From: Lysobacterales bacterium
GTDB lineage: Bacteria; Pseudomonadota; Gammaproteobacteria; Xanthomonadales; SZUA-5
Assembly (NCBI GenBank): GCA_022844165.1
Contig: JALHMH010000028.1
Location: forward strand, 1 to 60,032
Length of the DNA: 60,032 bases
Direction: 5' to 3'
A program made the position numbers and the translations under genes. A model generated the notes under the pieces. The model did not search any database and had not been told where the DNA came from. It was given only the letters and a program-made list of their open reading frames with translations. Positions 55,992 to 60,032 of this stretch are shown piece after piece. Positions within the stretch are counted from its first letter, which is position 1. Every line of letters begins with the position of its first letter.

Positions 55992-56231
55992 ATGCGAACC
56001 ACAATTGACTTGCCAGACGCCAAACACCGCCAGCTCAAAGCGATCTCGGAGAAGCGTGCGATCAGTTTGGGGCAGCTGATTTCCGAGCTCACCGATATTG
56101 CGTTGGAAGGAAGGGGGGCGCCCGCGCCTGCGACAACACTCATGGCCAGTCAGCAGACAGGGCTGCTGACGCTGAGCGTCGGCCGACCGATCTCTAGCGA
56201 TGAAGTGTCATCGCTCATGGAAACGATGTGA
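55992..56231 (+). CDS. VapB-like antitoxin (ribbon-helix-helix)
   Basis: MRTTIDLPD N-terminus; overlaps the toxin start (GTGA). Confidence 0.85.
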   Translation: MRTTIDLPDAKHRQLKAISEKRAISLGQLISELTDIALEGRGAPAPATTLMASQQTGLLTLSVGRPISSDEVSSLMETM

Positions 56232-56632
56232 TTTTGTTCGACGTCAATGTACTGATTGCGCTTGGGAGCCGCGATCACGAAGGCCGAACCGCCGCAGAGC
56301 AGTTTTTCTGCGCGTTGACCAGTTCGTTCGCAACTTGTCCAATCACGCAGACGGGTTTTGTTCGTGTCCTGGCACAGATCGATCGAACCCTGGCGCTGAC
56401 CGATGGTGTAGCCGTTCTCGCCAGCATTTGCGCGCACCCGAGGCACCAATTCATCGCGGACGATGTCAACGCTTTGGATCTGCCATGGATGTCGATTCGC
56501 GGTCACCGGCAAGTCACTGACGCTTACCTCGCAGCATTGGCGCGCAAGCACTCTGCGAAACTCGCAACCTTCGATCGTGCGCTGGTAGCGATCCACCCTG
56601 ACGTTGCTGTGCTGGTGCGAGCCTCTGAGTAG
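56228..56632 (+). CDS. vapC: VapC PIN-domain toxin
   Basis: LFDVNVLIAL, TCPITQ.GF.R, QVTDAYLAALA and LATFD motifs. Confidence 0.9.
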   Translation: MILFDVNVLIALGSRDHEGRTAAEQFFCALTSSFATCPITQTGFVRVLAQIDRTLALTDGVAVLASICAHPRHQFIADDVNALDLPWMSIRGHRQVTDAYLAALARKHSAKLATFDRALVAIHPDVAVLVRASE

Positions 56633-56990: not shown

Positions 56991-58199
56991 ATGAAAACCT
57001 GGTCTTTGATTTTTTCTTCGCTGCTTGCTGTTGGCGTCAGCGCCGCATCGGCTGCAACTCGCCCGCTTGATTTGCAGCACGTCTTTGGTACGGAACTGGT
57101 GCCCAACAAAGCTCTGATCGGTGCCGAATGGCACCATTTGGGCAAAGCCAAAATGGGGCGAGTTGGCGCCAGCGCCGAAGTCATCGAAACGCAGATACAA
57201 ACGCATCTTCAGGCGCTCGACAAGAAGGATGGTGCGCACTTCTGGATGGCCGTCGATCTCGTGAGCGGCGATGAGTATTTGGTGGAGTTGCCCAAAGACA
57301 TGGCCGGTGGCTTGCGCAGTTTGGCCACCAAGAGCGGCTGGGATATGGGCTTTGAAGGCACGGCGCCCAGTTTCGACGAGGAGTCGGCCGAAAAGGGCTG
57401 GAGCAACGGCACGGATGGACGCACGCGGCGCACCGACAACACCAGCTTCCCAAACCGCGCCTTAGGTCAAATCAACGGCGGGCTGCTGAGTGGTTGCAGC
57501 GGAACGCTCGTAGGAAGGCGCCACGTGCTGACTGCCGCGCACTGCTTGTACGACTTCGGCGATCAAGCATGGACGATCAATATGCGCTTTCGGCCCGGCC
57601 GCGAAGGCAGTTGCAACACGGCGGCCTGCCAGCCGTATGGCGCTCATACTGGGACTTGGTTTTTCACCCCAGTCAAGTGGCGTACCACCGGCAACTTCGC
57701 GTACGACTACGGCATGATTGTCCTGCAAGACACGCCGGGATTGGAAACTGGCTGGCTCGGCTATGCGGCCCTGGCATCAGAGACACTGCGCGACTATTGC
57801 GATGCGTCTCCGGCTGGTTTTTACTTTGGCCGTTGCATGAATCGAGGCTATCCGGCCTGCGGCTTTCCCGAAGCGCCCCTGGAATGCCGACTCAACAACG
57901 CCTGGCAGAACTGGGCCTATCAGGATGGCACCAACTCTTGCGAAATCGGCTCGTTTTACGGCGAAGCAGACGATGGTTGGCACGCGGCTTTCAGTACCAA
58001 TTGCGATATCAGCCGCGGGCATTCTGGCTCGGCGATTTATACCGATCGCTACAACAACGCTGCCCACGCGGTGTTCGGGATCGTCAGTACCCAGAAATGC
58101 AGCACCTGCACCGCAAACGACGACTTTCCGAATGGGATCCGTCGCATCACACCAGAAGTGCTCGACATGATCAGCTACTTCAAGGCTGAGAAACCCTGA
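56991..58199 (+). CDS. Secreted trypsin-like (V8/glutamyl endopeptidase-type) serine protease
   Basis: Signal peptide; CSGTLVG..VLTAAHC; DYG; GHSGS. Confidence 0.9.
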   Translation: MKTWSLIFSSLLAVGVSAASAATRPLDLQHVFGTELVPNKALIGAEWHHLGKAKMGRVGASAEVIETQIQTHLQALDKKDGAHFWMAVDLVSGDEYLVELPKDMAGGLRSLATKSGWDMGFEGTAPSFDEESAEKGWSNGTDGRTRRTDNTSFPNRALGQINGGLLSGCSGTLVGRRHVLTAAHCLYDFGDQAWTINMRFRPGREGSCNTAACQPYGAHTGTWFFTPVKWRTTGNFAYDYGMIVLQDTPGLETGWLGYAALASETLRDYCDASPAGFYFGRCMNRGYPACGFPEAPLECRLNNAWQNWAYQDGTNSCEIGSFYGEADDGWHAAFSTNCDISRGHSGSAIYTDRYNNAAHAVFGIVSTQKCSTCTANDDFPNGIRRITPEVLDMISYFKAEKP

Positions 58200-58225
58200 T
58201 CTGCATGCGTCGCGGTTGATTGGCA

Positions 58226-58252
58226 GGGGTGCCGGGTGACCGGCGCCCTTTG
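58226..58252 (+). terminator. Putative intrinsic terminator
   Basis: GGGTGCCGG-GTGA-CCGGCGCCC stem followed by TTT, downstream of the protease stop. Confidence 0.55.
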
Positions 58253-58384
58253 CGCGTTGATATGAACAGATTTCTGATCGCAAGGCATGCTCCGACCAAT
58301 GCTTGTTCCCGCTTCATTCAGTACTTAACATCGCATCAATGAAGTACGGAGATCGCGAAGGTCAGCACGATGGATATTCCAGTC

Positions 58385-58447
58385 CATGTGAGTCCACGAT
58401 TCCGGAGCATGTGAGTCCACGGTTCCGACGGATGGGAGTCCAGAGTC
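58385..58447 (+). repeat. 23-bp-period tandem repeat CATGTGAGTCCACG(A/G)TTCCG, about 2.5 copies
   Basis: Units start at 58385, 58408 and 58431 (third is degenerate). Confidence 0.8.
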
Positions 58448-58451
58448 TGTC

Positions 58452-58594
58452 GCTCTCTCTCCTCCTCTCCTCTCTGCGCCTCTCTTCCTCTCCTCTCTGC
58501 GCCTCTCTTCCTCTCCTCTCTGCGCCTCTCTTCCTCTCCTCTCTGCGCCTCTCTCCTCTCCTCTCTGCGCCTCTCTCCTCTCTTCCTCTTCTGC
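58452..58594 (+). repeat. Pyrimidine-rich 23-bp tandem array (CTCTGCGCCTCTCTTCCTCTCCT)n
   Basis: TGCG anchors at 58475, 58498, 58521, 58544, 58566 and 58592. Confidence 0.9.
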
Positions 58595-58687
58595 GGACAC
58601 CCTGCAGCCGTCAGAAAATTCTGACACCACTTTCAGCGTAAGCCAAGCCCTACAGACAAGCTCAGCGGTCATCGCAATGATCGCCGC

Positions 58688-59668
58688 ATGACTCAAGCCC
58701 GCCACCTCACTGTCGCCGAAGGCCAGCAAGGCCTCTATCACTGCGTCGCACGATGCGTGCGGCGCGCGTGGCTGTGCGGCATTGATCCGATCACGGGAGT
58801 GGACTACGAGCACCGCAAGCCAATGATCGCCTCGCGCATCCTGCAATTGGCTGGGATTTTTGCGGTCGATGTTTACAGCTACGCCGTGATGAGCAACCAC
58901 TTGCACGTGGTGCTGTCGATTGAACCGGCCGCCGCGCGCGATTGGTCTGATGAGGAAGTTGCCTGGCGCTGGGTGCAATTGTTCCCGGCGCGCGAGGAGG
59001 AACAGAACACGGCGAAAATCATCTCGTTACGCGCAGACAAAGCCGCACTTGAGGTCCGCCGCGGTCGGCTCATGGATCTGTCCTGGTTCATGCGCTGTCT
59101 TGACGAGCACATCGCGCGCAAGGCGAATGCCGAAGATGATGTGACGGGGCGCTTCTGGGAAGGCCGATTCAAATCTCAGTTGCTTGACGATGAAGCCGCG
59201 CTCGCCGCGGCGATGGCGTACGTCGACCTCAATCCGGTTCGAGCAGGGATCGCCGACAGCATCGCGAGCAGCGATCACACCAGTGTGCAGGTGCGTGCCG
59301 AGGAACTGCGCAAAGATCCCAGCAAAGCGGACGAGCCAATCCAACCCATTGCCGGCGTTCGGCTTGGTTTGTTGAAAGACCAAGCCTTCGCCAGACTGGC
59401 GATGAGCAATCGCCAGTACATTGAGTTAGTTGATTTCACCGGCCGCCAGATCAAGCCCGGCAAACGCGGCAAGATCGACGAGCGTGAGCCGACGGCGTTA
59501 AGCAAACTCGGACTCGACACCAACTACTGGACCGCGCACGTCAAAGGCGTCGGCTCTGGATATTGGCGCTTCGTTGCCAGCGTTGAAGCACTCGAAGCCA
59601 AGGCCGCAGAGTGGAAACGGAAGTGGCTCAGAGGTATCGGTTATGCCCGGAGCCTCGTGACCGGCTGA
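58688..59668 (+). CDS. Large RAYT-type HUH tyrosine transposase (Y1 family)
   Basis: YHCVARCVRRAWLCG, YAVMSNHLHVV (HUH), GRFWEGRFKS and AYVDLNPVRAG (catalytic Tyr). Confidence 0.92.
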   Translation: MTQARHLTVAEGQQGLYHCVARCVRRAWLCGIDPITGVDYEHRKPMIASRILQLAGIFAVDVYSYAVMSNHLHVVLSIEPAAARDWSDEEVAWRWVQLFPAREEEQNTAKIISLRADKAALEVRRGRLMDLSWFMRCLDEHIARKANAEDDVTGRFWEGRFKSQLLDDEAALAAAMAYVDLNPVRAGIADSIASSDHTSVQVRAEELRKDPSKADEPIQPIAGVRLGLLKDQAFARLAMSNRQYIELVDFTGRQIKPGKRGKIDEREPTALSKLGLDTNYWTAHVKGVGSGYWRFVASVEALEAKAAEWKRKWLRGIGYARSLVTG

Positions 59669-59844
59669 GATACTCACATGGGATTTTTGGCGCCGCTGGC
59701 GTCTGGAGGCGTTGGTCGCGCGCGCAAGATCACCTACCCTCGAACCACGATTCCCTTGTCGGAACGCCTTTGCGGCGTTCAGAACCGCCTACGCAGTTCG
59801 AAAACTGGGTGTCTTCGTTCTCCGCCCTCTTCGTTCTCCGCCCC

Positions 59845-60032
59845 GAGCAACGCGCCGCGCGCCTGGCAAAACTCGATCAAGCCGAAGCGCTCGGCGAGCG
59901 CTTGGCGAACAAACTGGATGCGCAAGACGAGGGTAAGCCGCAAGCCGGTCGCCGCGCCAGCGACCGCGGCGCGTACGCGCGTTTTGCGCGCGAACTGAAA
60001 GATCGCAAGCTGACGCGATTCTTCAAGATCGA
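59845..60032 (+). pseudogene. Internal fragment of an IS1634-family-like transposase, continuing beyond the window
   Basis: Manual translation EQRAARLAKLDQAEALGERLANKLDAQDEGKPQAGRRASDRGAYARFARELKDRKLTRFFKI; KLDAQD.G...GR..SD.GA..RF recalled as an IS1634 segment. Confidence 0.6.

Follow-up and report, generated by a model that had tools for sequence, protein, structure and literature searches.

The proteins of TnpA-Y1 subclass 2.3, a group of Y1/HUH tyrosine transposase-like enzymes, have been described as having a median length of 325 aa, a W motif reading WE, a Y motif reading YVDLNP and the HUH consensus NHYH, with L allowed at the middle position of the HUH motif in class 2 as a whole; their genes occur at a mean of 3.9 copies per genome, with 74.8% identity between copies of the same genome, and without repetitive extragenic palindromic (REP) sequences (PMC6006769). 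The main text of that survey by Quentin et al. 2018, supplementary figures aside, mentions no inverted repeats for subclass 2.3, and the words "tandem" and "direct repeat" are absent from it (PMC6006769). The second closely related system is TIRYT/TIRtron, in which a RAYT-like Y1 gene lies between terminal inverted repeats (TIRs) that share the motif GGGGWSAS and are described as "single, dimeric or grouped" (PMC3733652); Quentin et al. placed 20 of 26 TIRYT examples in subclass 2.1 and not in 2.3 (PMC6006769). Here, we analyze a Y1/HUH gene of this kind near the right end of a 60,032-nt stretch of DNA (the window), which is the entire contig C28 of a 4.68-Mb, 59-contig Lysobacterales genome. 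The gene belongs to a multicopy element with inverted ends, and the element is bordered at both ends by short tandem arrays, to which we refer as terminal stutter. Our main finding is that these arrays are, by their sequence, nested truncated tandem copies of the element's own termini; we suggest that they may be scars left by abortive action of the enzyme at its own ends.

The gene (58688..59668, + strand), identified as an open reading frame (ORF), by its motifs and in a fold model, encodes a protein of 326 aa with the motifs N70-H71-L72-H73 (HUH), W157-E158 and Y178-VDLNP (to P183). In an alignment of 30 sequences, N70 and H73 are invariant and H71 nearly so, while WE and YVDLNP are invariant or nearly so. 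Four further residues, H18, C19, C23 and C30 (residues 18-30; 58739-58777 in the window), are also invariant or nearly so among the 30 homologs and could form a metal-binding cluster in a subclass-specific insertion after the first strand. The protein scores 18 bits with Pfam Y1_Tnp (cut-off 23) and 38.2 bits with NCBIfam REP_Tyr_transpos (NF047646; cut-off 80), both weak, and a phmmer search against PDB sequences returned no match; a fold search was used instead. The best Foldseek match of an AlphaFold2 model based on the 30-sequence alignment (pLDDT 79.5, pTM 0.82) is the Escherichia coli TnpA-REP protein (4ER8; E 4.2e-4, probability 1.00, TM on target 0.60), followed by the transposases of ISDra2, IS608 and IS200 (2XM3, 2EC2 and 2A6M). 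In the model, strands 71-78 and 161-165 are separated by helices 80-149, and ~140 residues extend beyond the Y motif; we infer from it that the ~55-aa β3-αC insertion and the two-part C-terminal tail of subclass 2.3 are present.

Homologs are numerous (at least 7,948 of 8,000 scored candidates at E ≤ 0.001), mostly 316-328 aa long, and are annotated by JGI as "REP element-mobilizing transposase RayT". The window protein resembles subclass 2.3, as far as that subclass is described in the main text of the survey, in its length (326 vs 325 aa), WE and YVDLNP motifs, large insertion between the HUH and W/Y motifs and long C-terminal tail, and also in that its genome carries several copies of low identity and no REP-like hairpins; it differs in reading NHLH where the consensus is NHYH and in its host, subclass 2.3 having been reported mainly from Chromatiales and Alteromonadales (PMC6006769). 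The window copy and seven paralogs give a dN/dS of 0.11-0.16; among the eight intact paralogs, dN/dS is 0.07-0.22 and dS 0.21-1.75, indicating purifying selection and old copies. Such old, selected copies are unlike those of a typical active insertion sequence (IS) and match the published description of subclass 2.3. Judged from its sequence, the protein thus fits subclass 2.3, a gene family that is already known.

The left inverted-repeat core GGACACCC (58595..58602, + strand) and the right inner motif GGGTGTCT (59807-59814, + strand) form an inverted pair with seven of eight positions complementary. The latter lies within the right inverted-repeat core ACTGGGTGTCT (59804..59814, + strand), which was delimited by aligning the copies of the window's own genome. 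In that genome, tblastn returned 28 matches at 43-100% identity, eight of them intact and full-length and 20 partial; the eight full-length, stop-free copies share 68-94% aa identity with the window copy. The gene, which a preliminary description of this stretch, made from the sequence alone, had called RAYT-type, is therefore multicopy and not a single classical RAYT. In blastn comparisons, the DNA common to the copies begins at 58607 (at 58595 for one copy) and reaches 59722-59752 (59814/59822 in two copies). An alignment of nine copies has the right-end motif ...ACTGG(G/A)TGTC(C/T) in all own-genome copies. In near-relative metagenome contigs (records 16, 24 and 32; 2 differences in 190 nt), other DNA is joined to position 59843, and loose ends "before 59843" are present in X2 and X4. 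The foreign DNA joined at 59843 places the outer right boundary of the element at 59842|59843, with both units of a 16-bp duplication found there on the element side. Altogether, the locus is one copy of an IS-like element of ~1.25-1.4 kb, in which the Y1 gene lies between TIRs with the core GGACAC(C/G)C. The intact Y1/HUH gene between short inverted motifs that the preliminary description reported is thereby confirmed by its ORF, motifs, fold and inverted pair.

The ends, as far as their sequence goes, fit the described TIRYT type: a Y1 gene is flanked by TIRs, whose core is GGACACCC for the window element, while relatives have GGGGACAG or GGGACACC. Compared with GGGGWSAS, the left end of the window element, GCGGACAC, fits WSAS and has an interrupted G-run; in Alteromonadales plasmid copies, the homologous core reads AGACACCC. 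Inverted repeats of this kind are already known. Because the gene fits subclass 2.3 as described (PMC6006769) and the ends fit TIRYT as described (PMC3733652), the earlier suggestion of an undescribed system does not hold for either.

The gene is present in all 22 same-family genomes and in 29 of 39 relatives searched. Relatives are found in Lysobacterales, Rhodanobacteraceae, Lysobacteraceae, Dokdonella, Arenimonas, Tahibacter and Wenzhouxiangella and in one Verrucomicrobiales metagenome-assembled genome, and cultured carriers include Dokdonella sp. MW10 and Lysobacter sp. CCNWLW3; homologs at 36-46% identity, annotated as "transposase", lie on large plasmids of Pseudoalteromonas, Shewanella, Vibrio and others. 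Full-length copies are often clustered 2-5 kb apart (G003:C11, G004:C28, G006:C23, G014:C431, G016:C20 and C23, and G020:C2). A common cargo was sought among the genes between clustered copies of the own genome, and none was found, these genes being mixed accessory genes. Many own-genome copies lie at contig ends, including the opposite end of the window. There, partial Y1 copies at 115-687 and 859-1025 (62-67% aa identity) mean that the contig is bounded by the element at both sides; many other contigs of the assembly likewise terminate in Y1 element copies.

Three arrays border the window element, and Tandem Repeats Finder (TRF) and sequence reading agree with the preliminary description on their coordinates as well as on those of the motifs, the palindrome discussed below and the ORF. 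The left terminal stutter array (58455..58594, + strand) consists of CT-rich 23-mers (TRF, 58457-58582: period 23, 5.6 copies, 98% matches), and paralogs and the same-genus copy L013 have the same architecture. The right terminal stutter (59812..59843, + strand) is a perfect 16-bp duplication (TRF: period 16, 2.0 copies, 100% matches). A third array (58385..58442, − strand) comprises ~2.5 units of 23 bp (TRF: period 23, 2.5 copies, 85% matches). All copy numbers are as assembled in a short-read, metagenome-type contig that is terminated by repeats.

What the units consist of became clear when the 330 nt upstream of the left end were compared for every own-genome copy. Other copies carry arrays at this position too, and each array is made of units that repeat, in truncated form, the left terminus of the very copy it adjoins. 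Within an array, the units share their start and are 10-53 nt long, and the last one passes into the element, in the window as 58570-58595. The 5.6 copies of the window's CT-rich 23-mer, 98% alike, are copies of the outer segment CCTCT...CTGCG before GACACCC, and each stops at ...CTGCG, just short of the GACACCC core. The own genome contains three subfamilies that differ in their termini (...GAGATCC-GAGACAGCC..., GGCGGAATCG-CGGACAGCC... and CTCTTC(T/G)GCG-GACACCC...), and in each of them the core is the right-end motif inverted. At the right end, the units mirror those at the left: each consists of a variable piece of the right end, 2-295 nt long and ending ...GTC(C/T), plus an outer segment of ~10-14 nt. 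The 16-mer of the window, made of the last 2-3 nt of the core and ~13 nt of outer segment, is one example, and others are found at C1:255155-255934, where there are five right ends, at C3:150 and at C3:14091; C1, C3, C15 and C42, as well as copies in other genera, have comparable duplications following the right core.

The preliminary description had both 23-bp arrays just outside the left motif and drew attention to their common period. Both arrays are present. The periods of tandem repeats near such genes range from 9 to 99 (mode 10-16), the shared 23 bp is coincidental, and we rule it out as a meaningful unit length. As to position, the CT-rich array lies inside the terminal region of the element. 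The units of the 58385-58442 array, compared with the termini of copies C48, C3:22215 and C10, have on the − strand the form GGAATCG-TGGAC, like the left termini of other subfamilies (GGAATCG-CGGACAGCC and GGAATCG-GTGACC); blastn detected no Y1 homology to the left of this array. It is an inverted solo array derived from the terminus of another subfamily, and probably what is left of a neighbor copy that is now missing. A second solo array (C3:31507-31551; L191:1008-1060), with three ...CTTCAGGACACCCA... units and no Y1 homology nearby, is probably the scar of a lost copy.

The arrays are young and turning over, because their units are 98-100% alike while the paralogs differ by the dS values given above, and because closely related left ends bear quite different arrays.

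Terminal stutter is found throughout the family. Nested units of the same kind surround GGACAC cores in many genera, including on the complete chromosomes of Dokdonella sp. MW10, Lysobacter sp. BL-A-41-H3 and OY969566.1; on Pseudoalteromonas plasmid p1, six AGACACCCA copies lie upstream and two downstream, and a Saccharobesus plasmid copy has right-end stutter. In the own genome, tandem repeats cover 10.5% of the 13,757 bases that lie no more than 300 bp from element DNA vs 0.29% of the other 4,650,108 bases, a 36-fold enrichment, and 21 of 199 repeat loci, among them one CRISPR array and two contig-end repeats of unclear relation, lie in this element-proximal 0.3% of the genome. In a first set of 88 unique full-length copies from the own genome and the 39 relatives, tandem repeats covered 20.6% of bases upstream of the gene (100-149 nt from its start) and 20-21% downstream of it (150-299 nt from its stop), compared with 0.06% inside the gene and about 2% at a distance of 550-599 nt; 60 of the 88 copies had an array at one or both ends, and 19 had arrays at both. 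Scanning species-representative genomes yielded a second set of 60 further copies, in which the coverage peaks were 28.6% and 20.8%, with arrays in 45 copies and at both ends in 13. The comparison of homolog flanks that the preliminary description proposed thus bears out its statement that the arrays are tied to the ends of the element, and they are not a matter of chance, since their positions are the same in paralogs and in homologs of many genera.

As a control, we examined 30 loci of other Y1_Tnp genes, drawn from 60 other families of gammaproteobacteria. Terminus-derived arrays were lacking at the 11 loci of IS200 type, one of which has a small, unrelated 12-mer repeat within ~110 nt. The longer RAYT/TIRYT-like loci L202, L208, L213 and L215 showed the same stutter at both ends, with GGGTCAG or GGGGTCA cores. 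Because stutter occurs in the longer, TIR-type loci and is lacking in those of IS200 type, it seems to belong to TIR-associated Y1 elements in general.

To describe the geometry of the array boundaries, we aligned the 73 of 148 copies that had a TIR score ≥ 8 on their best inverted repeat and counted, for each offset, the copies of the 7-mer that lie further out. In these anchored copies, the median distance of the core from the gene is 89 nt on the start side and 220 nt on the stop side. With offsets read from outside to inside and 0 being the G of GACA, the values at the left and right ends were 0.11 and 0.11 at −14, 0.51 and 0.96 at −10, 0.84 and 1.04 at −8, 0.32 and 0.44 at 0, and 0.12 and 0.19 at +4. 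The most-repeated 7-mers thus begin 12 to 4 nt outside GACA at both ends. This combination of a sharp outer edge and a gradual inward decay points to a fixed point located ~8-12 nt outward of the core at either end, with the strand switched between the ends; at the left end of the window element, the fixed outer point is located 26 nt outside the core. A ramp test agreed at the left end (59 vs 28, p 0.001); this test lends weak support only, as it is noisy at K=6 and flags too many "arrays" (91 and 108 of 148). In many lineages (L027, L089, L161 and L096), the outer segment is itself within the inverted repeat and is therefore part of the element. We also considered the outer segments as target-site duplications or excision footprints and ruled this out, because in many lineages they are inverted and not direct between the two ends.

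Repeated action of some kind at a fixed terminal site would be expected to leave truncated terminal copies with a fixed outer boundary. HUH enzymes in general nick DNA, become covalently attached to its 5' end and rejoin ends. Based on the composition, position, symmetry and youth of the arrays, on their differences between closely related ends and on their restriction to one kind of Y1 element, the origin that we favor is that they are scars of abortive enzyme action (nick, extension and rejoining) at the element's own ends, in which strand-displacing, rolling-circle-like transposition would be initiated and then aborted, and we give this reading a probability of roughly 50%. In this scheme, the enzyme would nick each strand at a fixed point 5' of the terminus and would remain covalently attached to the 5' end of the element; a host polymerase, sometimes switching template, would then add a few to a few dozen nucleotides to the free 3'-OH of the flank; finally, the enzyme would join the 3' end so produced to the 5' end that it holds, and one more truncated copy of the terminus would be left behind. 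We hold the details, including the place and strand of the nick, with less confidence than the scheme as a whole and at less than even odds. More tentatively still, and with some doubt, we speculate that TIR-associated Y1 enzymes of subclasses 2.3 and 2.1 start nick-primed, strand-displacing copying at their own termini that often aborts and is rejoined.

Several observations weigh against abortive enzyme action at the ends. No empty site has been recovered to fix the true termini: the upstream DNA of the metagenome contigs joined at 59843 was not found in the own assembly, so that they do not provide a clean empty site, and genome G001, of the same genus, does not have conserved flanks and contains just a 66% paralog of the neighboring protease gene. 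Arrays are lacking in 28 of 88 copies of the first set and 15 of 60 of the second, and the Shewanella pNi1-3 copy has single cores without arrays. The copies come from related genomes and are non-independent, and the loci examined are the best-scoring ones, so that the counts are descriptive and not tests. Many units have a few extra "tail" letters at their junctions, for which an added template switch or plain slippage is needed, and the exact boundary is ambiguous for single duplications because the phase of these is not fixable. At the right end, the ramp test agreed in tendency only, giving 43 vs 56 (p 0.23), with Spearman rho > 0 in 66 vs 39. Finally, the right array of L160 reads more easily as having a fixed start right behind the core and a variable outward extent. 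A same-strand (IS608-like) polarity, with coding-strand nicks at both ends, would fit L160; it is disfavored, as the anchored profile and the ramp signs favor the mirror-symmetric model.

In the first of the other explanations, a tightly bound protein or a local DNA structure at the terminus stalls replication forks, and ordinary slippage of replication or switching of template at this place produces the arrays, without a nick. Slippage would readily account for the many short units (8-16 nt), for arrays as regular as the 23-mer x5.6 of the window, for junctions that often contain 1-4 nt repeating the preceding letters and for the occurrence of the arrays in purine- or pyrimidine-rich termini of low complexity. 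However, it does not predict that the outer boundary is fixed per array even though unit lengths vary from 10 to 53 and up to 295 nt, or that the same geometry recurs in lineages with unrelated outer segments and GC contents; moreover, there is no conserved hairpin that could stall forks. We consider slippage unlikely as the source of the arrays.

It is somewhat less probable still that the arrays are remnants of serial insertions of related elements at each other's ends, with excision or deletion leaving terminal stubs. Clustering is what such a history would produce: C3 has seven pieces in 23 kb, C1 has five right ends in 800 bp, and in many relatives copies lie 2-5 kb apart; there are also long right-end stubs of 48, 205 and 295 nt, and the 58385-58442 array in the window would be an inverted stub of another subfamily. 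Nevertheless, transposition products would be longer than units of 8-20 nt, the terminus that the units match is that of the adjacent copy itself and not that of another subfamily, and each deletion would need to end precisely at the junction.

A selected role as iteron-like multiple binding sites for the enzyme's extra domains, serving end recognition or regulation, appears improbable. While the protein does have large extra domains, and pMV158-type plasmid HUH Rep proteins bind tandem direct repeats beside their nick site (PMC10288648), the number, length and completeness of the units vary between near-identical ends, many copies have no array and many units (the CT-rich units of the window, and those of L020 and L101) have no conserved core. 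That the window arrays are assembly artefacts or chance low-complexity DNA is very hard to maintain, for although the window is a short-read, metagenome-type contig ending in repeats and a public-run search (Logan contigs of four drinking-water metagenome runs from one study) returned no contig spanning 58404-58475 or the window arrays, repeats are enriched 36-fold near element DNA and the same arrays are present in complete chromosomes and plasmids.

Just inside the left core lies the 16-bp palindrome GTCAGAAAATTCTGAC (GTCAGAA-AA-TTCTGAC; 58610..58625, + strand), followed by a second conserved box, CCCTACAGAC (58648-58657, + strand). The preliminary description called the palindrome a hairpin. 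However, its predicted hairpin is weak on the + strand (−4.2 kcal/mol, z −1.0; − strand z −2.7), and when the best perfect stem behind the core was determined for 104 unique left ends, its mean length was 3.7 bp vs 3.4 in shuffles, with ≥ 6 bp in nine of them. Because it is not conserved across these left ends, we ruled out the palindrome as a family-wide recognition hairpin; rather, the palindrome and the second box appear to be a lineage-specific motif of the 5' leader or promoter region. The palindrome recurs upstream of unrelated host genes (C6:122936, C7:5179, C25:48208, C27:48213, C23:35067, C29:25472, C29:58960 and C42:29431), among them a pilin-like gene, a coaBC-like gene and a gene for a secreted protein, and several of these occurrences are then followed by a ...CTGACAGAC box. 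This recurring palindrome may be a host operator or promoter motif, or the occurrences may be solo remnants of left ends. The segment 59750-59814 at the right end has a predicted fold of −14.2 kcal/mol (z −2.9), with a structure that differs from that of the left end.

An Rfam scan of 58100-60032 gave no match at E ≤ 1. In searches of the own genome for a dispersed REP-like family, the degenerate right-end 11-mer had 55 matches vs ~54 expected (expectation calculated by hand), and the core 9-mer had 74 matches outside element DNA vs 52 in a reversed-genome control. The earlier observation that there are no REPs beside the gene is therefore upheld, as there is neither a conserved hairpin nor a dispersed repeat family.

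Among the other features of the window, the 3' non-coding part of the element contains the subterminal inverted repeat GAACGCC-TTTGC-GGCGTTC (59762..59780, + strand). The right flank (59843..60032, + strand) is the 3' part of an ORF, which starts abruptly where the element stops; in the metagenome contigs, the same DNA has other sequence in front of it, and truncation of the gene may have occurred here. Upstream of the element are a gene for a PIN-domain protein (56228-56632) and one for a 402-aa trypsin-like protease (56991-58199), and the element copy in C15 likewise adjoins a gene for a secreted metalloprotease. Elsewhere in the own genome, a separate Y1_Tnp gene (C48:21393-21728) scores 72 bits, above the Pfam cut-off, in a 170-aa frame, and has just one small 10-mer repeat in its flanks. 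A CRISPR array with a 28-bp repeat and a period of ~61 bp (C4:214060-214333) lies directly behind the right end of a truncated Y1 copy (locus L008); its repeat presumably resembles a type I-E repeat.

Proteins of TnpA-Y1 subclasses 2.1 and 2.3 are widespread, and published surveys report finding no repeats associated with them. If abortive copying by these enzymes at their own termini is the source of the arrays, they would be a sequence-level fossil record of the cleavage site, strand polarity and mode of action (rolling-circle-like and symmetric at both ends) for the whole clade, and a natural case of HUH-coupled templated DNA writing into a chromosome. The arrays predict a fixed site ~10 nt outside the GGACAC core, on opposite strands at the two ends, and their length would be a cheap read-out of activity. 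They also account for the breaking of such genomes into contigs at these loci, and they could serve as fast-evolving strain markers.

We found no description of such arrays in the RAYT, REP and Y1 transposase literature searched, figures and supplements of key papers aside, and the terminal stutter and our reading of it appear to be new. In the main text of Bertels et al. 2017, the word "tandem" is absent, and the 16-mers flanking Group 1 genes are just modestly frequent (PMC5581495). The TIRYT paper, in its main text, gives families and clusters of TIRs and differs from our description in that nested truncated arrays with a fixed outer boundary, or a mechanism for them, are not part of it (PMC3733652); the "grouped" TIRs of Di Nocera et al. 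2013 may include these arrays. The overall interpretation in the preliminary description, in which the enzyme nicks near a motif at its ends and builds short arrays there, is partly supported.

Among the more distant systems, REPtrons, which consist of an E. coli-type RAYT (TnpA-REP) gene flanked by inverted cognate repeats, resemble the window element in this arrangement, in the Y1 fold and in the clustering of the repeats; in contrast to them, the window element has no GTAG-tagged hairpin and no dispersed high-copy repeat family, and its gene is multicopy. IS200/IS605 elements are likewise multicopy, IS-sized and encode a Y1 HUH transposase. However, their enzyme has ~150 aa and a Y-x3-Q motif, and they have subterminal hairpins, no inverted repeats and near-identical copies, whereas the Y motif of the window protein ends in NP, TIRs are present and the copies are 68-94% identical. 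In the replication of rolling-circle plasmids, in IS91/Helitron-type transposons and in parvoviral terminal resolution, synthesis starts from the free 3'-OH while an HUH enzyme is held covalently at the 5' end, and the reaction terminates when the ends are rejoined. The chemistry that we propose for the stutter is the same; the difference is that in those systems the reaction normally reaches a defined terminator, whereas here the products would be abortive, short, templated duplications in the chromosome.

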